Below are positions 116 through 46,689 of a DNA stretch of 64,000 nt, piece after piece; positions within the stretch are counted from its first letter, which is position 1, and each line of letters starts with the position of its first letter. The position numbers and the translations under genes are program-made. Source of the stretch: a bacterium. Lineage in GTDB: Bacteria; SZUA-182; DTGQ01; JAFGSM01. The notes under the pieces were generated by a model. The model worked only from the letters and a program-made list of their open reading frames with translations. It made no database searches and was not told where the DNA came from. The stretch covers positions 9,562 through 73,561 of the forward strand of contig JBLIRN010000013.1 of the NCBI GenBank assembly GCA_049472315.1. Direction: 5' to 3'.

Positions 116-151
116 GGCCGGGACACTCGTGAAGAGTTCCGGCCCTTTTTT
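116..151 (+). terminator. Rho-independent terminator hairpin (gggccgg...ccggccc) followed by a T9 tract. Orientation fits a + strand gene ending upstream of the window.
   Basis: 7-bp GC stem with a 17-nt loop and TTTTTTTTT read directly from the sequence. Confidence 0.5.
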
Positions 152-190
152 TAACGGTTGGTGGTACGCCCTGCTGTTCCTGTCGGGAGA

Positions 191-991
191 TCAGGTCTTG
201 AGGATTGTCAGTGCCTCGTCCACCGAGACGTTCTCATGGACGAGGCTGCAAATGGCCTTGACCATGGCCCTCTTGTTCTCGTGCTGGAATGCATTTCTCC
301 CGATCGAAACCCCGGCCCCCCCTTCGTCGATGGAATCCTTGATGATCTGAAATACCTGCCGGTCATTGCCGGCCTTTTCACCGCCTGCAATCACCACCGG
401 TATGGGGCATCCGCGCACCACCTCGGCAAACCCTTCCCGTGTCCCCGGATAACTCACCTTGACGATATCCGCACCCAACTCAGCCGCAATCCTGGCTGCG
501 TGTTTGATTCCTTCCACTGACCGCTCGTCGCTGAATTTTTCGCCCCTGGTATACATCATGGCCAGGAGGGGCATGCCCCATTCGTGACACTTGATGGAAA
601 CCTCTCCGAGGTCCTTCAGCATGTCGGACTCGCTTTCCGCCCCGATATTGATGTGGACGGAGACCGCATCGGCGCCGATCTTCAAGGCCATTTCCACGGT
701 GTTGACGAGGACCTTGGCATTGGGGTCCGGCGCCCACACCGTGCTCCCCGAGAGGTGGAGTATGAGGCCGATATCGCGGCCATGTCTGCGATGACCATGC
801 AAGGGTAGGCCAATATGCCCCAGCACGGCGTTTGCTCCCCCCTCCGAGATTTCGTTCACCATGTCCCGCATATCCACGATGCCCTTTATGGGGCCCATCG
901 TGACCCCATGGTCCATGGGTACGATCACCGTCTTGTGCGTGTTTCGATCGATGATCCTTTCAAGCCTGATGTTCTTTCCAATGCCGAGCAT
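191..991 (-). CDS. Class I aldolase of the DhnA/LsrF family (archaeal-type fructose-bisphosphate aldolase or 2-amino-3,7-dideoxy-D-threo-hept-6-ulosonate synthase-like)
   Basis: 266-aa ORF. The N-terminus GKNIRLERI...TVIVPMDHGVTMGP and the overall composition are typical of the DhnA-type class I aldolase fold. Confidence 0.7.
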   Translation of the reverse strand: MLGIGKNIRLERIIDRNTHKTVIVPMDHGVTMGPIKGIVDMRDMVNEISEGGANAVLGHIGLPLHGHRRHGRDIGLILHLSGSTVWAPDPNAKVLVNTVEMALKIGADAVSVHINIGAESESDMLKDLGEVSIKCHEWGMPLLAMMYTRGEKFSDERSVEGIKHAARIAAELGADIVKVSYPGTREGFAEVVRGCPIPVVIAGGEKAGNDRQVFQIIKDSIDEGGAGVSIGRNAFQHENKRAMVKAICSLVHENVSVDEALTILKT

Positions 992-1306
992 AGGTTCGCC
1001 CCCTTAAACCAAATTTAGAAGAATACAACTTGAGAATAATAAAAATCATACACTTGAATTGTATGCATTCCAAAAGAGCAAGAATCCTGCCCTTACCGTT
1101 ATTAACCCTCTCGTATCCTCCAGCCATCCAAGCCGCACCCGGAAGGCATGGCGTGGATGTCGTCATGACGAAGCAATTTTATGCCGGTCCACCCCGCACC
1201 CGGAAGACACCCCACGGTGATGTAGCGGACATCCACCGATACGGAGTAGATTAGCACCTTTTTTTTCAAAGTTCCAGTAGAAACGGGTGACTGGCACGCA
1301 TGCCCA

Positions 1307-1334
1307 TTGACATGCCGATTTTTTGAGGTATAAC
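1307..1334 (+). promoter_or_regulatory. Sigma-70-like promoter: TTGACA, a 16-17-nt spacer, then TATAAC
   Basis: Consensus -35 and near-consensus -10 read directly. It faces the downstream micro-ORF and radical SAM operon. Confidence 0.5.
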
Positions 1335-1404
1335 TATATACAAGAGGGTTTTATAGCAGCCTATTCAATCTGCTCGCCTTGCGCGAAGAAAGGAGGATGC
1401 GAGG

Positions 1405-1467
1405 ATGACGATCAAAAAGGTGACAAAAAGGTCCAAGGGGCTGTGTAAGTGCAAGAATTCCTGCTGA
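1405..1467 (+). CDS. Candidate 20-aa Cys-rich micro-ORF (MTIKKVTKRSKGLCKCKNSC). It could be a leader or precursor peptide.
   Basis: An AGGAGG Shine-Dalgarno 8 nt upstream of the ATG. Three Cys in the last 7 codons. A hairpin with a T-tract lies 20 nt after the stop. It is too short for the ORF track. Confidence 0.3.
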   Translation: MTIKKVTKRSKGLCKCKNSC

Positions 1468-1487
1468 CGTTGTTTGTGTCCATCTGA

Positions 1488-1524
1488 GGGTCGGCGGTGT
1501 ACGCTGTCGGCCCTTTTTGTTTTT
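1488..1524 (+). terminator. Intrinsic terminator or attenuator-like hairpin with a T-tract, between the micro-ORF and the next gene
   Basis: gggtcggc / gtcggccc stem (8 bp, including 2 G-U pairs), a 10-nt loop, then TTTTTGTTTTT. Confidence 0.4.
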
Positions 1525-1537
1525 CGGAGAACGATGC

Positions 1538-1900
1538 ATGGGAAAGGAGGGATTCAAGGGATATATCTGCCGTCCCTTTTGCACCTATTTTCGTGAGGGT
1601 GCAAAGGAGGATATGGCGTGCCGCGGGGCCCGGGTGGTCGAATCCCTGCTGCAGGCAGGGGTGTTCCGGATCGATGCCATTCCAATAAACGGGAAGTCTC
1701 CGCACCTATGGGCACACCGCGACGAGGTCCTGGAACGGACGGTGTGTCGATCATGCCCCTTTCGTGCGGAGGATTGCGATTTTCAATCCCCGGTCCCTCC
1801 CCCCGGCGCGGAACCGTGCGGTGGCTATATCCTGCTGAGCCTTCTCAAGGAGAAGGGAATCATCACCACTGCGGATCTCGAGGATTCGGGCGATGGATGA
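1538..1900 (+). CDS. Small cysteine-rich protein of unassigned family (about 120 aa, 10 Cys), translationally coupled to the radical SAM gene
   Basis: In-frame ATG with a GGAGAA Shine-Dalgarno sequence. Cys motifs CRPFC, CRSCPF, EDCDF, EPCGG. The stop overlaps the radical SAM start (ATGGATGA). Confidence 0.5.
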   Translation: MGKEGFKGYICRPFCTYFREGAKEDMACRGARVVESLLQAGVFRIDAIPINGKSPHLWAHRDEVLERTVCRSCPFRAEDCDFQSPVPPPGAEPCGGYILLSLLKEKGIITTADLEDSGDG

Positions 1901-3068
1901 TAACAGGCGTTTTTTACGACTGCATCCCCGGGCTGCGCTGAAACGGCTGGAGCGTCCCTTTGTCTATCACCTCGACCGGGACGAGCTCTATGAGATCGAT
2001 GCTGCTGCGGAGTCATTTCTGGTTTCCTGTGACGGTACACTGGCCAGAGAAAAAGCGGCCGCCGAGGAGGAATTCGTGGCATATTGCCTCGAGGAGGGAC
2101 TCCTGGAGGTCCTGTCGCAACCGGAATACACGCCGGTGTGCATGGATCGGGCCCCGGTTCCCTCCCTGCGCTATCTGGAGCTGCAGCTTACCAGCCGGTG
2201 TAACCTGAAATGCCTCCACTGCTATCTGGGGCCGCCGCAGCAGGATGTCCTCCCCCTGGCCGCAGCGCTCGGCATTGCCAGTGAATTTTCATCGCATGGG
2301 GGCCTGCGCCTTTTGATCACCGGGGGGGAACCGCTTTGCTATCCTCACATCGAGGAGTTTATCGAAAAGACAGCCGATCTGAAGGTGCGGCGCGTGATTT
2401 TGACCAACGGAACGCTCATCGCCACAGAAAACATCCGCAGGCTTGCGGTGGAGAACATCCAGTTCAGTCTGGACGGCTGGCGTGCAGGGCATGAGCAGGT
2501 GCGGGGGAAGGGCTCCTTTGATAAGGCGTTGCAGGGGATATATGCGGCCAGGGAGGCGGGGATACCCGTATCCATCGCCACCATGATCCACCGGGGAAAC
2601 CTGAAGGAATTCGACCGCATGAGACGGTTTGCCGAGGAGATCGAGGCAACCGAGTGGGGAATCGACGTGCCGTGCGTGGCAGGTTCCCTTGCGCACAACA
2701 CCAATCTGATCGTCCCCTATGAGGAGGCGGTTCCCTTCATGAGGTACTCCTACGGAGGGGGGTACCACGGGTCATCGGACGGATTTGCCTGCGGACACCA
2801 TCTGATGACGGTGTTGCCCACGGGCAGGGCGGTCAAGTGCGGATTTTATGCGGATGCGCCCCTGGGGGACGCCCGGGAAGGCCTTATGGCATGCTGGGGG
2901 AGACTGCGGCATGTTCCACTCGAGACGCTCGAATGCAGGAGCTGCCCGGTGGTCGAGGAATGTGCCGGGGGCTGCCGGTTTCGCGCCCCCCATCCGCTGG
3001 CCCCCGACCCGGTGATGTGCATCCTCCATGGCAGGGATCGCCTTGCCTCCCCTGAACGCAAGCCCTGA
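1893..3068 (+). CDS. Radical SAM/SPASM-domain protein (peptide-modifying maturase family)
   Basis: CNLKCLHCY (CxxxCxxC) radical SAM motif, a GGEPL motif, and a C-terminal Cys-rich SPASM-like region (CRSCPVVEECAGGCRF). Confidence 0.85.
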   Translation: MDDNRRFLRLHPRAALKRLERPFVYHLDRDELYEIDAAAESFLVSCDGTLAREKAAAEEEFVAYCLEEGLLEVLSQPEYTPVCMDRAPVPSLRYLELQLTSRCNLKCLHCYLGPPQQDVLPLAAALGIASEFSSHGGLRLLITGGEPLCYPHIEEFIEKTADLKVRRVILTNGTLIATENIRRLAVENIQFSLDGWRAGHEQVRGKGSFDKALQGIYAAREAGIPVSIATMIHRGNLKEFDRMRRFAEEIEATEWGIDVPCVAGSLAHNTNLIVPYEEAVPFMRYSYGGGYHGSSDGFACGHHLMTVLPTGRAVKCGFYADAPLGDAREGLMACWGRLRHVPLETLECRSCPVVEECAGGCRFRAPHPLAPDPVMCILHGRDRLASPERKP

Positions 3069-3090
3069 GCCCCTCCGGTATCCCGGTTGC

Positions 3091-4455
3091 TCACCTGCCT
3101 CGTCGTATGTGGTGTTTTTTCATCTTGTAGCGAAGGACTCGCTCGCTGATGCCGAGTTCCTCGGCCGCCCGCGTCTGCACCCACCGGTGGTTCTCGAGTG
3201 CCTTGAGTATCATCGACCGCTCGGAATTCGCCAGATGGCTCCCCAGGAGCCCCGTTTGTTCTTCCAGGCTCTCCTGCGGGCGCTGCTTCATCTGCATGGG
3301 AAGGTCTTCCACATCGATGACCTCGTGCCGGGTGAGCACCACTGCCCGCTCGATGATGTTTTCCAGCTCCCGGATATTCCCCGGGTAATCGTACTTGATG
3401 AGCATGTCCCGGGCCTCGCGGGTGATCCCCTTGATCTGCTTGTGGCACTTGAGGCTGAACCGTTTCAGGAAGTGTTCGATGAGTCTCGGGATGTCCTCCT
3501 TGCGGTCCCTCAGGGGCGGGATGATGATGGGGACGACATTCAGGCGGTAGTAGAGATCCTCCCGGAACGATCCCTCCTTCATCAATTCCTCCAGGTTTCT
3601 GTTCGTGGCGGCGAGTATCCGGCAATCGGTTTCGATGGTCGCATTGGAGCCGATGCGCTGAAAGGTCTTTTCCTGAAGGACCCTCAGGAGCTTGGCCTGG
3701 GTGCTGAGGGAGATGTCCCCGATCTCGTCGAGGAAGATCGATCCCCCGTCCGCCTCTTCGAACCGTCCCCTCCTCATGGTGATGGCACCGGTGAACGACC
3801 CCTTTTCATGTCCGAACAGCTCCGATTCAAGGAGGGTTTCGGGCAAGGCCGCGCAATTGACCTTGATCAGGGGACGATTCGCCCTCAGGCTGTGGAAATG
3901 AATGGCCTGGGCGATCAGCTCCTTGCCGGTGCCGCTTTCCCCCCGGATGAGCACGGTGGTGTCCGTCCTGGCGACCCGGGTCACCAGATTCAGCACCTCC
4001 TCCATCTGGCCGCTCGCGCTGACGATGTGGTCAAAGGAGAATCGCTCGTGAATGATCCTCTTCAGTTCCCTGTTTTCCTCTCGCAACTGGAGGTAGTCGG
4101 TACCCTTTTTCAGGATGACCGTGAGCTCATCCAGATCCACCGGTTTCGTCAGGTAGTGGTATGCACCGTCCTTCATCGCCTGCACCGCCATCTCGATGGT
4201 ACCGTACGCGGTGAAGACGATCACCAGGATCTCGGGATTGATCTGCCTGATCCTTCTCAGAAGCTCCAGACCGGTCATTTCCGGCATCTGGTGATCGGTG
4301 AGCACCACATCCACGGGGTGCTCCTGCACGATGGCAATGGCCTCGCGGCCGGTCTCGCACCCCAGGGACTGATACCCCTTTTTGGCAAGGAAGCCCACCA
4401 GCATTTCCCGTTGATTTCGTTCATCGTCAACCACAACCACGACCCGGTTTTTCAT
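3091..4455 (-). CDS. Sigma-54-dependent response regulator (NtrC/Fis family): receiver, AAA+ and HTH domains
   Basis: Receiver domain (DDE...), GESGTGKE Walker A, a GAFTGA-like motif, and a C-terminal Fis-type HTH. Confidence 0.9.
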   Translation of the reverse strand: MKNRVVVVVDDERNQREMLVGFLAKKGYQSLGCETGREAIAIVQEHPVDVVLTDHQMPEMTGLELLRRIRQINPEILVIVFTAYGTIEMAVQAMKDGAYHYLTKPVDLDELTVILKKGTDYLQLREENRELKRIIHERFSFDHIVSASGQMEEVLNLVTRVARTDTTVLIRGESGTGKELIAQAIHFHSLRANRPLIKVNCAALPETLLESELFGHEKGSFTGAITMRRGRFEEADGGSIFLDEIGDISLSTQAKLLRVLQEKTFQRIGSNATIETDCRILAATNRNLEELMKEGSFREDLYYRLNVVPIIIPPLRDRKEDIPRLIEHFLKRFSLKCHKQIKGITREARDMLIKYDYPGNIRELENIIERAVVLTRHEVIDVEDLPMQMKQRPQESLEEQTGLLGSHLANSERSMILKALENHRWVQTRAAEELGISERVLRYKMKKHHIRRGR

Positions 4456-6209
4456 CAGGTATCCCGCCCCCTTTCCTTTTTATTCGGCGATTTGCTGGGC
4501 AGATAGAGGATGAATGTGGCGCCGTGCCCCTCCTCGGAGGCGACCTCGATCCTCCCGCAATGATCCTCCATGATCTTTTGTGCAATGGGAAGCCCGAGCC
4601 CGATTCCTCCCTCCTTGTTCGTATAGTAGAATTCAAAGATCTTGTCTATCTGGGAGGGGCTGAGCCCGGGACCGGTATCCGCAACCCGGATGACCGCCCC
4701 CTCGGGGGTATGTTCCAGGGAGATGGTGATCTTCCCCCCGCCGGGCATTGCCTGGATGGCATTCCGGATGATATTCATCAGGCACTGTTTGATCTGACCG
4801 GGATCGCACCATGCCTCGCCCCCGTTCTTGTCATATGATGTCTCCATGACGATGTTGCTTTTTTCGGCCTCCGCACCCAAGAAGAGCACCAGGTCATCGA
4901 TCAGCTTGGTGAGGCGGACGGAGGTCTTTTCCGTATGGTACTGTTTTGCGAAGTTCAAGAAGTCGGTGATGATCTTGTCCACCCGCCCGATCTCCTCCCG
5001 GATCACGGTGCTGAATTCCATGAATTCCTTTCGGTCCTTTTCGCCTTCGGGAAGGAATTCGTGCTGCAGGCGCTGGATTGCCATGCTGATCGCGTTCAGC
5101 GGGTTTCTGATCTCGTGGGCCACCCCTGCGGCGAGTTTTCCGATGGAGATGAGTTTGTCCGCCCGCTGGATCTCCTCTTCCCGGGACTTTTGCACCCGAT
5201 ACTGGCGGTACTGGTGGAAGAAGATGAGAAAGATCCCGCAGATTCCCAGTGCTATCATCACGCCGCCGAACCAGAAAGCCTGGGCGCTCATGGCATGTTC
5301 CGTCTCCTTGAGCTTGGACAGGGAGAGCCCCACCCGCATGAGTCCGACGCGCCGTCCCTGGAAGGAAAATGGATGCCGGATCTCCATGACCTCCTTTCCG
5401 GTCCTGGAAACGGTCATGGAGGACTCCTCGCCGCTGAGGTAGTGGAACAGCGGCTTGGCAAGCGGCGCTGGCCCCGATTCCCCTTTCTGCGCGGTGATTC
5501 TATTGAAGGGGTCATCGTAGATCAGATACTCGATGCCCGGCTTGGCCCCGATTTGATTGATTATTTTGGAAAGGCTGATCTCGGATATGAAGTTCCTGAG
5601 GTATTCCCCCTGGACGGTGACGATGATCGCGCCGGGGGCTGTTCTGCGGGCAACCGCCACCCACAGGAGGTTTTCCTGAACCGGGCTGAGGGGCTCGTTT
5701 CCCACCATCAGATGCTGTTTGCGACCGGAAAGCACGGGATTGACCATGGGCAGGATGTTCGCAGGGTCCATAGCGGGTGGTGAGGGGGCGGGAAGCCCGG
5801 GAAAGACATAGGGGGGGTTGGAATCCAGGACGAATCTCCCCACGGCATCGGTGATGATGACCCGAAATATATTCGTTTCCTGAACGAGCTGTTTGAGGAT
5901 GAAGGGGTTCTCACCGGTGAGGGACATGACGCGATCGATGAAGTACGCATTGTCCAGAAGCCGTTCCGCCACCTGCTGCCTGACCAGGGATTCGGAGAGG
6001 ACCGCATTGTGCCACGCGATCTCGAGGCTCTGTACGAGTGCCTCACCCTGATGCCGCAACAGGTTATACATCTCGATCTTTTCGCGGCGAAACTGAATGA
6101 GCCCGTTCACCGTGATCAGGATGATCAGCAGGAAAAGCGTGATCACCGCATAGGTGGTGAACAGGGGTTTTCCCCGTGTTGTCTTATCCGGATGCGTGTT
6201 TGTATTCAT
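4455..6209 (-). CDS. Sensor histidine kinase (periplasmic sensor, HisKA and HATPase_c domains), partner of the sigma-54 regulator
   Basis: N-terminal transmembrane segment, an H-box (AGVAHEIRNPL), and G1/G2 ATPase motifs. Overlaps the regulator start (TGATG). Confidence 0.85.
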   Translation of the reverse strand: MNTNTHPDKTTRGKPLFTTYAVITLFLLIILITVNGLIQFRREKIEMYNLLRHQGEALVQSLEIAWHNAVLSESLVRQQVAERLLDNAYFIDRVMSLTGENPFILKQLVQETNIFRVIITDAVGRFVLDSNPPYVFPGLPAPSPPAMDPANILPMVNPVLSGRKQHLMVGNEPLSPVQENLLWVAVARRTAPGAIIVTVQGEYLRNFISEISLSKIINQIGAKPGIEYLIYDDPFNRITAQKGESGPAPLAKPLFHYLSGEESSMTVSRTGKEVMEIRHPFSFQGRRVGLMRVGLSLSKLKETEHAMSAQAFWFGGVMIALGICGIFLIFFHQYRQYRVQKSREEEIQRADKLISIGKLAAGVAHEIRNPLNAISMAIQRLQHEFLPEGEKDRKEFMEFSTVIREEIGRVDKIITDFLNFAKQYHTEKTSVRLTKLIDDLVLFLGAEAEKSNIVMETSYDKNGGEAWCDPGQIKQCLMNIIRNAIQAMPGGGKITISLEHTPEGAVIRVADTGPGLSPSQIDKIFEFYYTNKEGGIGLGLPIAQKIMEDHCGRIEVASEEGHGATFILYLPSKSPNKKERGRDT

Positions 6210-6735
6210 AATTGTCTTGGGTCATCACTCCCTTGGGTATGAGCCGCCTTCGTGCTCCACCTGCATATGGTCCGGATCCGAGCATGGATTCGGATGGATT
6301 AAGTATATAGTGCGTACCGTTCCTTGGCAACAAGAAGGGGATGGGAGATACCTGCTTGATCCCATCCCCTTCCTCGGCTGTTGTTGAGCTTGCGATTGTT
6401 TCCGGGTAAATAGCGGCGAGGGGTTTTGTCTCCCCTCGCCCGTACAGTGCATCACCTCCTTTCCGTCAAAGACCCTGACAAGGGTGTTCATTGGTTGCGC
6501 CATTTCTCCCCTGGAAGTGTTTTCTTGTTCCCTCTCTACCTCCTTTCTTTCTCGTTGGTGTGTCATCAACTATCCCTTACCCAGTATAGAAAGCAACCCT
6601 GATGCCAACGTGGGTATATCATTTTATCTTATTGTTATTATTGACAGAATAGATTTATGCAGCGACGGGGGTATACCGTCGCCCCTCCCTGGCTCGACGA
6701 TTTTTGGGGATGACTCGACACTGATGTCGAATGGC

Positions 6736-6920: not shown

Positions 6921-7048
6921 ATTGCCTGAGCGTTTAACCGGAAATCATGATAGAAGCGGTCATCCTTTTGCTGTATAATGCCGCAAAAGGCGTATGCCAT
7001 TGTATGCAATTGTCAAATGTATTCTATCCAGTTCACAGGAAGGAATGT

Positions 7049-8266
7049 ATGACAGGCAAGGGAATGGAGGATCGCCGCAACGGGACGGTCAGCCTCAGCC
7101 GATGCGGAAGCTATGCAGTCGACGAGGTGGAGGAGGCGGTACGGGGCGCACTCGAACCCCTGGGCGGTATGGGTAGCTTCGTCAAACCCAAACAGCGGGT
7201 TGCCCTGAAGCCGAACCTCCTGCGGGGGGCGGACGCATCGAGTGCGGTCATTACGCACCCGTCGGTGGTGGAGGCAGTTGCCCGATTGGTGACCGAAGCC
7301 GGAGGGAGTCCGTTCGTTATAGACAGCCCCGGCGCCGGCATTCCCTATGTCCCGCAGACCCTGCACCGGATCTATCAGCGATGCGGATACCTTTCCCTGG
7401 AGCTTGCGGTGTCCCTGAACTACGACTGCAGGATCACCGCCGTTCCCTTTGCAGAAGGCAGGGTGATGAAGCGCTTCGATGTGCTCTCCCCGGTCCTCGA
7501 TGCGGATGTGCTCATCAACCTGCCCAAGGTAAAATCACATGGATTCACCTATCTGAGCTGCGCGGTGAAGAACCTCTTCGGGGTGGTGCCCGGTTTGCAC
7601 AAGCCCTCATACCACGGAAGGTTCAAGGATCGCGAGCGGTTCGGCAGCATGTTGATCGATCTGTGCCTGCTCCTCGCCCCCGCGCTCACCATATGCGATG
7701 GAATCGTGGGGATGGAGGGGGATGGGCCGTCATGGGGAGGTCTCAGGGAATTGGGACTCATCGCTGCCTCCGCGGATCCCTTCCATCTGGACCTGGTGAC
7801 ATGCTCCCTCATCGATTTCGATCCCATGCGGGTTCCCTATCTCAGGCAGGCGATCCACCAGGGGATCTGCGCTGCTGATGTGTCCGCCGTGCCGCTGAAG
7901 GCACCGGGGACGCTCGATGCCCTGCGCGTTCCGTTCTCCGCCCCGGCCACGTTCGACGCACCCGGGGTGATCGACCGTCTGCGGCGTGCGTTCCTCCTGA
8001 GTGTCCTGTGCCATGCATGCGGCAGGGTATTGAGCATTACCCCGCGCGTTGACCCGGCGGCCTGTCGCGGATGCGGGGTATGTGCGGAGGCATGTCCGAA
8101 CCGGGCCGTCTCCATGGTTTCCGGCAGGGCGCGGATCAATCGCCGCCGGTGCATCCGCTGCTATTGCTGCCACGAGCTGTGCCCCCACGGGGCCATTGTG
8201 CTGAGACCCTCACGGATCAGGAAGGTTCTCCGGGCATTAAGGCGGGCAGCACTCCGGCGGGTATGA
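7049..8266 (+). CDS. DUF362-domain protein with a C-terminal 2x[4Fe-4S] ferredoxin domain
   Basis: N-terminus typical of DUF362 (VKPKQRVALKPNLL). Two CxxCxxCxxxCP motifs at the C-terminus. An AGGAAGG Shine-Dalgarno sequence before the ATG at 7049. Confidence 0.7.
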   Translation: MTGKGMEDRRNGTVSLSRCGSYAVDEVEEAVRGALEPLGGMGSFVKPKQRVALKPNLLRGADASSAVITHPSVVEAVARLVTEAGGSPFVIDSPGAGIPYVPQTLHRIYQRCGYLSLELAVSLNYDCRITAVPFAEGRVMKRFDVLSPVLDADVLINLPKVKSHGFTYLSCAVKNLFGVVPGLHKPSYHGRFKDRERFGSMLIDLCLLLAPALTICDGIVGMEGDGPSWGGLRELGLIAASADPFHLDLVTCSLIDFDPMRVPYLRQAIHQGICAADVSAVPLKAPGTLDALRVPFSAPATFDAPGVIDRLRRAFLLSVLCHACGRVLSITPRVDPAACRGCGVCAEACPNRAVSMVSGRARINRRRCIRCYCCHELCPHGAIVLRPSRIRKVLRALRRAALRRV

Positions 8267-45732: not shown

Positions 45733-46689
45733 ATGCTATATTTCAACTGCTCTTGTGTGGCTCAACTTATAGCTCCTAAGGAGGCGTCATTGGGCAAAAA
45801 ATATACCATTATCATCGTTCCTGATCCCTCGTCAAAGCCCATGCGCTTTTATCTGTCGAAGGGATTACTCAAAGGGTTGTTGATATTTGGTATAGCCGCC
45901 CTTATCTTTTCAGGGGTCATGGTGTGTCATTATTTCGGTTTAAAACGGCAGGTCACCGATGTGGCCAGGCTCAGGGAAGACAATCGCCAGCAAAAACTCC
46001 AACTGACCTCGCTCACCAAACGCATCGAATCCCTGGGCAGGAGGTTGAACCAACTCCACAGCTCCAATTCAAAGCTTCAGATCCTTGCCGGGATCAAGAA
46101 GCCCGAAAACAGCAAGCAGGTGTTCGGCATGGGTGGCGGCATAGCGGACGGCATGTACGAATTCTCCCGTGTCAACCTCGCCCGGCTCGTTGAACAGATG
46201 GAGGAGGAGCTCGAAAACATCGAATTCGAGGTCTCTTCTCAGGAGGATACGCTCCAGGAGTTGACCACCATCATCGAAAGCAGAAAGTCGATCCTCGATT
46301 CCACCCCTGCCATATGGCCTACCAGGGGATGGATCACCTCGGGGTTCGGCTATCGAAAGTCACCCTTTACCGGGAAGAGAAGGATGCACCATGGCGTGGA
46401 TATCGCCTCCAGAAGAGGCACCCCGATCATGGCCACCGCCCGGGGTATCGTTACCTTTTCCGCGGTTAAGGGAAACTACGGCAAGGTAGTGGTGCTCAGC
46501 CACGGCTATGGATTTTCAACCATTTATGCCCACAACTCAGTCAATCTCGTGAAGGTCGGGGATAAGGTGGAACGGGGTGACATTGTCGCCTACCTCGGCA
46601 ATACCGGCCGCAGCACGGCCCCGCACCTGCATTACGAGGTTCGGCAAAACAGAACCCCGGTGAATCCGATCTACTACATGCTCGATTGA
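45733..46689 (+). CDS. M23-family metallopeptidase with an N-terminal coiled coil (EnvC-like)
   Basis: HHGVDI...GNTG.STAPHLHYEV. Confidence 0.8.
   Translation: MLYFNCSCVAQLIAPKEASLGKKYTIIIVPDPSSKPMRFYLSKGLLKGLLIFGIAALIFSGVMVCHYFGLKRQVTDVARLREDNRQQKLQLTSLTKRIESLGRRLNQLHSSNSKLQILAGIKKPENSKQVFGMGGGIADGMYEFSRVNLARLVEQMEEELENIEFEVSSQEDTLQELTTIIESRKSILDSTPAIWPTRGWITSGFGYRKSPFTGKRRMHHGVDIASRRGTPIMATARGIVTFSAVKGNYGKVVVLSHGYGFSTIYAHNSVNLVKVGDKVERGDIVAYLGNTGRSTAPHLHYEVRQNRTPVNPIYYMLD

Follow-up and report, generated by a model that had tools for sequence, protein, structure and literature searches.

A conserved 20-residue cysteine-containing peptide beside a radical SAM/SPASM enzyme: a candidate RiPP-type maturation system of uncultured anaerobic bacteria

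Does a 20-codon open reading frame (ORF) lying in front of a radical S-adenosylmethionine (SAM) enzyme gene encode a peptide that the enzyme matures? The question arises from a 64,000-nucleotide stretch of bacterial DNA (assembly GCA_049472315.1, contig JBLIRN010000013.1, positions 9,562 to 73,561; hereafter the window), in which three genes follow one another on the plus strand. Gene A is the 20-codon ORF, gene B encodes a cysteine-rich protein of 120 amino acids (aa), and gene C encodes a radical SAM enzyme. An initial annotation, made from the sequence alone, had described this layout and proposed a cluster resembling those for peptides that are made on ribosomes and modified after translation (RiPPs); its three-gene layout and coordinates were all confirmed on the window sequence (Table 1). 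Our comparative analysis suggests that A-B-C is, with good probability, a self-contained and previously undescribed RiPP-type maturation system. The conserved peptide, its linkage to the enzyme and the peptide-maturase fold of the enzyme support the earlier proposal, with some amendments, among them that B is best placed as an accessory subunit and not as a second substrate.

The peptide gene and its linkage to the enzyme

The first seed was gene B, which is uninformative about gene A. Homologues of B, about 120 aa long, form 77 clusters, none of them named, and a profile built from 26 of these clusters recovered 45 loci in species-representative genomes, all metagenome-assembled genomes (MAGs) or single-cell assemblies. 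The loci belong to Desulfobacterales, Geobacteraceae, Syntrophales, other Thermodesulfobacteriota, Desulfobacca, two Spirochaetota and Nitrospira. Upstream of gene B, at a distance of 65-250 nucleotides (nt), 36 of the 45 loci have an ORF that is exactly 20 codons long; in most of the remaining nine, the contig end was too near B or the B copy was an orphan.

Over 39 distinct loci the peptide has the consensus M-K-I-(K/R)-K-(V/I)-x-(K/R)-x-x-x-G-L-C-K-C-x-x-(S/T)-C-stop. Every one of the 39 starts with ATG and is 20 codons long, and essentially all carry a GGAG-type Shine-Dalgarno sequence 5-9 nt before the ATG. Residues M1, I3, K5, C14, K15, C16 and C20 are invariant. The window peptide, MTIKKVTKRSKGLCKCKNSC, consists of a basic N-terminal segment and a C-terminal CKCxxSC core, with an isoelectric point of about 10. 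Summed entropies at codon positions 1, 2 and 3 are 9.5, 11.4 and 24.4 bits, the third being 2-2.5 times the others, and substitutions are mostly synonymous, with a ratio of non-synonymous to synonymous changes (pN/pS) of 0.26. Gly12 is encoded by all four GGN codons and Leu13 by CTG, CTT, CTC or TTG, and the stop codons TGA, TAA and TAG are each used. The entropy pattern, the pN/pS value and the variety of codons and stop codons together indicate that gene A is a real gene and that what is selected is its protein, neither an RNA nor a DNA site. The 20-codon ORF and its Shine-Dalgarno sequence, as first noted in the window, thus proved real and conserved. Locus L171 (3522-3587), from a Trichloromonas sp. 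MAG, encodes the only length variant seen, the 21-codon peptide MKIRKVKREAAGLCKCSKSCL, in which an extra Leu follows the otherwise terminal Cys; the C-terminal Cys therefore need not be the last residue.

The expectation that standard annotation would miss so short an ORF was borne out. An exact look-up of eight forms of the peptide found none among 15 billion predicted proteins, and no NCBIfam model matched the 20-residue peptide. Literature searches by keyword and motif string found no description of the peptide or the system, although their coverage was incomplete and the result is absence of evidence only.

To follow the peptide gene itself, a degenerate 63-nt pattern of it was scanned over metagenome contigs. 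The scan gave at least 120 matches, and 116 listed loci carry the peptide gene. Fifty of these 116 have the order A-(B)-C, eight have A-B and then a contig end, and 37 have the order C-A; contig ends made 13 undecidable, and in eight the peptide gene is an orphan with space on both sides. The enzyme gene or B adjoins the peptide gene in 95 of the 116 listed loci, the arrangement expected of a precursor gene and its maturase. In the C-A class, the peptide gene begins 2 nt past the enzyme stop codon. The enzyme of this class is 41-44% identical to that of the window and keeps the N-terminal domain, and no gene B was found on contigs of up to 14 kb. Thirty of the C-A loci form one clade with the peptide MTIKKVAKKFSGLCKCKASC, and here the peptide gene is followed by genes for an ATP-grasp-like protein, small membrane proteins and a MacB/FtsX ATP-binding cassette (ABC) transporter. 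A third order occurs in a Nitrospira genome (L042), where C precedes A on one strand and B precedes a cupin gene on the other. A and B are likewise present in L171 and L172, two loci that were reached by seeding from the enzyme. The peptide gene is duplicated in tandem in L087/L159 and in L113, and L068 has two copies separated by about 1.9 kb.

The A-C pair is the invariant core of the system, independent of gene order. Conservation of the peptide gene in orthologous radical SAM neighbourhoods held whether the search was seeded from B, from the peptide or from the enzyme, and the association spans three gene orders and several bacterial phyla. The system is widespread, and its carriers are sediment and wetland anaerobes, including sulfate reducers, Geobacterales, Syntrophales, Nitrospirota and Spirochaetota.

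Some neighbours of particular copies were also recorded. In L064 and L106, an orphan peptide gene encoding MKIKKIAKVSKGLCKCKGSC lies near hypA, hypB and genes for a HyaD-type protease and a NiFe hydrogenase large subunit, as read from ORF translations, with no radical SAM gene within several kb. The orphan copies in L071/L094, L098, L139 and L160 have unrelated neighbours. In L153 and about 20 related loci, nifU- and nifS-like genes, recognised by their N-terminal sequences, lie 2-3.5 kb upstream of the radical SAM gene on the opposite strand. As these loci all come from a single C-A clade, the linkage may be no more than syntenic.

Protein B and the radical SAM/SPASM enzyme

Gene B had been credited with ten cysteines and no obvious family. 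The actual count is seven (C11, C15, C28, C70, C73, C80 and C94), all invariant or nearly so in the family, whereas the second statement stood, with no Pfam, NCBIfam or PDB match to B. The protein has the pattern CRPFC...C...CxxCx6C...EPCGG, is conserved along its whole length, and was modelled by AlphaFold2 (AF2) as a folded helical protein with a predicted local distance difference test (pLDDT) score of 83. An exhaustive profile search collected 244 representatives, which are mostly stand-alone proteins of 105-135 aa. Four well-diverged proteins (P0242, P0281, P0328 and P0333) are in-frame fusions of B with the N-terminal domain, the radical SAM core and the SPASM domain of the enzyme, and P0322 is an in-frame fusion of B with a cupin. 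Given these fusions and the 8-nt overlap of B with C, B most plausibly serves the maturase as an accessory subunit, and its seven invariant cysteines suggest that it probably binds a metal or an Fe-S cluster.

Could B instead be the true substrate of the radical SAM enzyme, with the 20-residue peptide an unrelated co-transcribed basic or metal-binding protein? The model would be QhpC and QhpD, which act in maturation of the quinohemoprotein amine dehydrogenase gamma subunit; QhpD, a SPASM radical SAM enzyme, cross-links the small cysteine-rich protein QhpC encoded beside it, which establishes that SPASM enzymes can act on small proteins. The seven invariant cysteines of B and its translational coupling to C would suit such a role. 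However, the whole C-A clade keeps the peptide and the enzyme without B, and fusion of B to the enzyme N-terminus and to a cupin is the pattern of a subunit and not of a released product. Conservation over the full length and the folded helical model likewise speak against a substrate. Furthermore, the QhpD model TIGR03906 matched only a C-terminal segment of the enzyme (9.4 bits, E 0.37, cut-off 453), and no dehydrogenase subunits are encoded nearby. We consider it very unlikely that B is the substrate and keep it as a subunit that one clade can dispense with.

The only other recurrent neighbour is a cupin gene, present in 25 of the first 50 loci. Its product of about 110 aa contains a PGKGHEE motif, has a GGHSEDGHHH-type tail at the C-terminus and matched Cupin_2 below threshold. 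The gene is not beside the window cluster; the sole tblastn match in the window, at 46072-46179, was rejected as a weak antisense artefact. Other accessory genes are specific to groups of loci: a second radical SAM/SPASM gene lacking the N-terminal domain in Desulfobacterales loci, a SAM methyltransferase gene in Geobacterales-type loci and the ATP-grasp gene in the C-A clade. In L034 (8808-10070; also L029, L031, L035 and L036, all Desulfobacterales), the gene right after that for the cupin encodes a truncated cysteinyl-tRNA synthetase paralogue. This 420-aa protein has HIGN and KMSKS motifs, scores 301 bits with the cysS model against a cut-off of 340 and is also MshC-like. This synteny could reflect mere relatedness of the loci, or the protein could be a Cys-ligating tailoring enzyme.

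Some B genes stand apart from the system. Copies without an adjacent radical SAM or peptide gene occur in L004 (2004-2384), L006 (2142-2513) and L041 (958-1353), and the MAG LacPavin_0920_SED5_MAG_48_26 has two B copies (L006 and L040). In a Nitrospiraceae MAG (L043, 5680-8914), a distant orphan B paralogue (6001-6315, 29% identity), with no radical SAM or peptide gene adjacent, is flanked by cutA and, on the other strand, by genes for a Mop/TOBE molbindin, an ABC ATPase, a permease and a TupA-like tungstate/molybdate-binding protein. This isolated case hints, anecdotally, at a molybdenum or tungsten link for the B family. B may also have a role outside the maturase.

Gene C matched the Pfam Radical_SAM model PF04055 (E 1.2e-21, 78 bits, cut-off 29.5), and the cysteines of its CxxxCxxC motif (C103, C107 and C110) are invariant in a 30-sequence alignment, which places it in the radical SAM superfamily. 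The same alignment shows seven further invariant cysteines, C300, C316, C348, C351, C357, C361 and C376. TIGR04085 matched residues 290-391 with 30.3 bits, above its cut-off of 27, although the Pfam SPASM model gave no match to the whole protein at E <= 0.1. The SPASM-type cysteine cluster named in the initial annotation is thus upheld. The only database annotation of the enzyme is 'radical SAM protein', and that of B is 'hypothetical protein'. A search with the enzyme gave 1533 matches at E <= 1e-20, other radical SAM families included, of which the best 120 each have an identity of 59% or more.

The AF2 model of gene C (pLDDT 87) has an extra N-terminal strand/helix domain. A Foldseek search of the PDB with this model gave SkfB, SuiB (in a peptide complex) and CteB as best matches, aligned over 386-437 columns at full length, including their N-terminal RiPP recognition elements (RREs). 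The anaerobic sulfatase-maturating enzyme ranks below the RiPP maturases among these matches. The mean net charge of the N-terminal domain is -7.4, complementary to that of the peptide (+7.6). The modelled fold suggests that this domain is probably an RRE-like peptide-binding domain.

No NCBIfam equivalog came near its cut-off for gene C, the best being ScmE (84 bits, cut-off 400). The models for AhbC/D, NirJ, MftC, PqqE and StsB scored 4-10 fold under their cut-offs and matched the core only, and more distant enzyme variants, tested also against AlbA and SkfB, were equally far below. These partial matches raise the alternative that C is a non-peptide SPASM enzyme, acting in heme, cofactor or sugar chemistry or as a sulfatase maturase, and that its association with the peptide is incidental. 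The top ones do include AhbC/AhbD/NirJ, MoaA and a tungsten-cofactor maturase, and one distant B paralogue lies beside a tungstate/molybdate uptake operon. However, the matches cover only the generic radical SAM core, at scores 5-10 times under their cut-offs, and no sulfatase, heme or molybdopterin genes are among the conserved neighbours. A non-peptide enzyme would also leave unexplained the extra N-terminal domain, the peptide maturases as best full-length structural matches and a linkage to the peptide that survives changes of gene order. We therefore regard an incidental association as highly improbable, and the enzyme falls outside the characterised non-peptide clades, with no sulfatase beside the operon. 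Two specific candidates were rejected. An anaerobic sulfatase maturase is contradicted by the lack of a sulfatase among the conserved neighbours and by the extra N-terminal domain. A prokaryotic viperin in anti-phage defence had been suggested by the PADLOC pVip model, which matched only the generic core (60 bits, residues 97-255), in a protein with a SPASM and an N-terminal domain.

Expression signals and proposed maturation

A consensus promoter had been placed ahead of gene A. The site stands as an 11/12 match to consensus, with a C in place of the final T of the -10 element, so that it is not a full consensus; the consensus scanner made no call on it because of this last base. Upstream of the peptide ATG in about 24 of the 39 loci there is a perfect TTGACA, a 16-17 nt spacer and a TAnAAT-like -10 element; by our own estimate TTGACA is expected by chance in about 4% of loci. 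The distance from promoter to ATG in relatives is 57-147 nt. A single operon behind this promoter had also been assumed. Its gene order is confirmed, but a conserved terminator between A and B had been overlooked. In 36 of the 39 loci a hairpin followed by at least four T lies about 20 nt past the peptide stop codon (19 nt in the window), with stem sequences that are quite different among loci. Its folding free energy is -15 kcal/mol or lower in 79% of the 39 loci, compared with 0.3% of shuffled sequences. In the window, the GGAG and ATG of gene B come directly after the T-run, which leaves no space for a separate promoter, so that B and C would be transcribed only by read-through. The terminator is probably leaky. 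RiPP operons of the sboA-alb kind control the stoichiometry of precursor and enzyme by placing a leaky terminator between a short, strongly expressed gene and the enzyme genes. By analogy, the layout of signals around genes A, B and C matches high expression of the peptide and lower expression of the enzyme.

The least probable explanation, that the ORF is a leader whose functionless peptide attenuates the Cys- and Fe-S-rich B-C genes by ribosome stalling at Cys codons according to cysteine supply, has in its favour the position of the ORF upstream of B-C in the window, the strong terminator 19 nt on with its T-run against the B ribosome-binding site, and three Cys codons among its last seven, but it is excluded as a general explanation by the C-A gene order, because in the 37 listed metagenomic loci and Nitrospira L042 a peptide gene downstream of the enzyme gene cannot attenuate it, while orphan and tandem copies exist and protein-level selection has preserved I3, K5, G12, L13, K15, S/T19 and the exact length across phyla. 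To our knowledge, leader peptides do not show such conserved non-regulatory residues and exact length. An antiterminator pairing as an alternative fold was not seen either, but no search aimed at it was made.

Other regulatory elements were considered. A riboswitch or small RNA was dropped, since no Rfam match was found in window positions 900-3300 (E <= 1) and no riboswitch in 12 related leaders. No convincing sigma-54 promoter (TGGCAC-N5-TTGC) was found upstream in the window or in relatives. In a Geobacteraceae MAG (L016, 5377-5455, minus strand), a c-di-GMP-I-GGC riboswitch aptamer was found about 400 nt upstream of the peptide gene; it is encoded on the opposite strand, exceeds its gathering score with 64 bits and presumably regulates the divergent gene.

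For the RiPP-type system that we favour, the following course of events may be proposed. Gene A, with its own strong promoter and ribosome-binding site, would be expressed as a 20-residue precursor; the leaky terminator right after it would keep the peptide mRNA in excess, and read-through transcripts would carry the translationally coupled B and C. The acidic RRE-like domain of C would bind the basic segment M-K-I-(K/R)-K-(V/I), and the radical SAM core, with two auxiliary SPASM clusters, would modify the C-terminal core C-K-C-x-x-(S/T)-C. B would assist as the Cys-rich and probably metal- or Fe-S-binding accessory subunit. Tailoring might then follow in a clade-specific manner, by the His-tailed cupin, the second radical SAM/SPASM enzyme, the methyltransferase or the ATP-grasp protein.

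Among conceivable reactions, the formation of one or more intramolecular thioethers of sactionine or ranthionine type from the Cys sulfurs would be the most likely. A bond from a Cys sulfur to a carbon of G12, L13, K15 or S/T19 can be suggested tentatively, by analogy with the majority of SPASM maturases that act on Cys, and a C-terminal reaction like that of MftC, or another Cys-directed reaction, is possible instead. The product is more likely an intracellular physiological molecule, related to metal or redox metabolism, than an antibiotic, because the core hardly varies from phylum to phylum and neither a protease nor an exporter is conserved in the A-B-C type. A further and doubtful step, to which we give a rather low probability, is that the peptide is the scaffold of a conserved intracellular thiol/metal cofactor or metallophore of anaerobes, with a status like that of pyrroloquinoline quinone (PQQ) or mycofactocin. 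The machine would then consist of three or four proteins: the RRE-radical SAM-SPASM enzyme, the Cys-rich B with no known fold and the His-tailed cupin. Hints in this direction are the near-invariance of the CKCxx(S/T)C core from Desulfobacterota to Nitrospirota and Spirochaetota and the richness of B and the cupin in metal ligands. Anecdotal hints come from the neighbours described above, namely nifU/nifS, hypA/hypB with the NiFe hydrogenase gene and the tungstate/molybdate uptake operon.

Several points count against a RiPP-type system. Twenty residues are short for a leader and a core, and the A-B-C type loci examined contain no conserved protease, exporter or leader-cleavage motif. There are also eight orphan peptide genes among the listed peptide-seeded loci and four orphan B genes. 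The Pfam PqqD match in the enzyme family is weak (3 of 19 members, best E 0.008), and a profile search of PDB sequences gave no RRE match. None of the thioether maturase models (AlbA, SkfB, StsB, PapB, SCIFF and CcpM) came near its cut-off, which makes the chemistry a guess by analogy: StsB scored 68 bits with the window enzyme (cut-off 625); AlbA, SkfB, CcpM and CefB scored 62, 60, 59 and 62 with the C-A clade enzyme (cut-offs 850, 300, 500 and 600); and PapB scored 43 with the B-C fusion P0242 (cut-off 340). Finally, every locus comes from a MAG, a single-cell assembly or a metagenome of uncultured organisms, and the whole case is comparative.

Relation to known systems and surroundings in the window

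By sequence criteria, the system fails membership of every curated family tried, yet it resembles RiPP systems with an RRE-radical SAM-SPASM enzyme. In the sactipeptide systems (SkfA/SkfB and those of AlbA, ThnB and StsB), the enzyme joins an N-terminal RRE and a radical SAM core to an auxiliary-cluster domain at the C-terminus, an architecture that gene C probably shares. The best full-length structural match is SkfB, whose small Cys-containing precursor is encoded beside it, and by this analogy a Cys-to-carbon thioether would be expected here. However, the sequence likeness to SkfB is confined to the radical SAM core (the C-A clade enzyme scores 59.8 bits with the SkfB model, whose cut-off is 300, and a match to the SkfB PDB chain reached 78 bits). 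Unlike the sactipeptide precursors, the present one is of 20 residues, very basic and near-invariant across phyla, and it comes with the extra Cys-rich subunit B and without a conserved protease or exporter.

SCIFF and other ranthipeptide systems (ScfA/ScfB, CteA/CteB and PapA/PapB) share with ours a highly conserved Cys-rich precursor next to a radical SAM-SPASM maturase, probably also the RRE of that maturase, and an apparently physiological role that is not antibiotic, and CteB is among the top full-length structural matches. The SCIFF precursor, in contrast, has about 45 residues, six Cys and its own curated model, whereas the present peptide has 20 residues, three Cys, no CxxxD/E-type acceptor motif and no match to that model. 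The PapB and SCIFF maturase models matched only the B-C fusion P0242 and the second radical SAM enzyme of L034, far below their cut-offs. The ranthipeptide systems are those of Clostridia; the present loci are from Desulfobacterota, Nitrospirota and Spirochaetota.

The class whose conservation pattern most resembles the present system is that of PQQ and mycofactocin (PqqA/PqqD/PqqE and MftA/MftB/MftC). Its precursor is likewise very short and conserved (22-24 aa in PqqA), with C-terminal reactive residues; a PqqD-type domain binds the precursor, a SPASM radical SAM enzyme modifies it and the product is an intracellular cofactor, as would be the case here. The differences are that here the PqqD-like domain is fused to the enzyme, the core is without Glu/Tyr or Val-Tyr, and the PqqE and MftC models gave only 61 bits (cut-off 381) and 68 bits (cut-off 265). 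Moreover, no pqqB/C, mftD/E/F or downstream peptidase or oxidase genes were found in the loci examined; the accessory genes are those for B and the cupin.

The class is therefore familiar, and what is unfamiliar is a very short, ultra-conserved precursor, a new Cys-rich subunit and a cupin partner. Radical SAM/SPASM peptide systems have been a source of new chemistry and cofactors, as with PQQ, mycofactocin, the sactipeptides and the ranthipeptides. The present system has been overlooked so far because its peptide gene is below the length limit of gene callers. It adds a Cys-rich accessory family of 244 representatives without a known fold and offers a compact three-gene cassette that is directly testable. 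It also exemplifies how comparative genomics can bring to light micro-ORFs beside pairs of a 'hypothetical protein' and a radical SAM gene. If the product is indeed a physiological metal or redox factor, the system would be relevant to the metabolism of anaerobes.

Table 1. Features of the A-B-C cluster and its surroundings (coordinates of the whole window)
Feature	Position	Strand	Basis or remark
Sigma-70-type promoter-like site, TTGACA (1307-1312), 16 nt, TATAAC (1329-1334)	1307-1334	+	direct sequence reading
Shine-Dalgarno sequence of gene A, AAAGGAGG	1389-1396	+	end 8 nt before ATG
Gene A, 20-codon precursor-type peptide MTIKKVTKRSKGLCKCKNSC	1405-1467	+	conservation in 39 loci
Intrinsic-terminator-like hairpin, 13 G+C-rich pairs, then T-run	1486-1525	+	between genes A and B
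Gene B, 120-aa acidic helical protein	1538-1900	+	ORF
Gene C, 391-aa radical SAM/SPASM enzyme	1893-3068	+	Pfam Radical_SAM, Foldseek
N-terminal domain of gene C, acidic, PqqD/RRE-like, about residues 1-75/80	1893-2132	+	predicted fold pattern, structural alignment
CxxxCxxC radical SAM cluster motif, C103/C107/C110	2199-2222	+	30-sequence alignment
SPASM domain, C300-x15-C316 ... C348-x2-C351-x5-C357-x3-C361 ... C376	2790-3020	+	alignment, TIGR04085
DeoC/LacD-type aldolase gene, divergent from operon	191-991	-	one flank of the cluster
Terminator-like hairpin ggccgggacactcgtgaagagttccggccc and T-run	118-160		ahead of aldolase stop
Sigma-54 response regulator gene (REC + Sigma54_activat + HTH_8)	3091-4455	-	convergent with gene C
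Sensor histidine kinase-like ORF	4455-6209	-	sequence
DUF362 protein with C-terminal 2x[4Fe-4S] ferredoxin domain	6947-8266		about 4 kb from cluster

The overlap of the start of gene C with the end of gene B, also part of the initial annotation, is confirmed and measures 8 nt, the stop codon of B included. A sigma-54 two-component system convergent with the cluster had been pointed out as well. It is present in the window, where the kinase-like ORF lies just upstream of the regulator gene, but it is not part of the system, as the pair was not a conserved neighbour of the cluster in the other loci examined. On the other side of the cluster, the hairpin and T-run that lie ahead of the aldolase stop codon (minus strand) may be active in either orientation.

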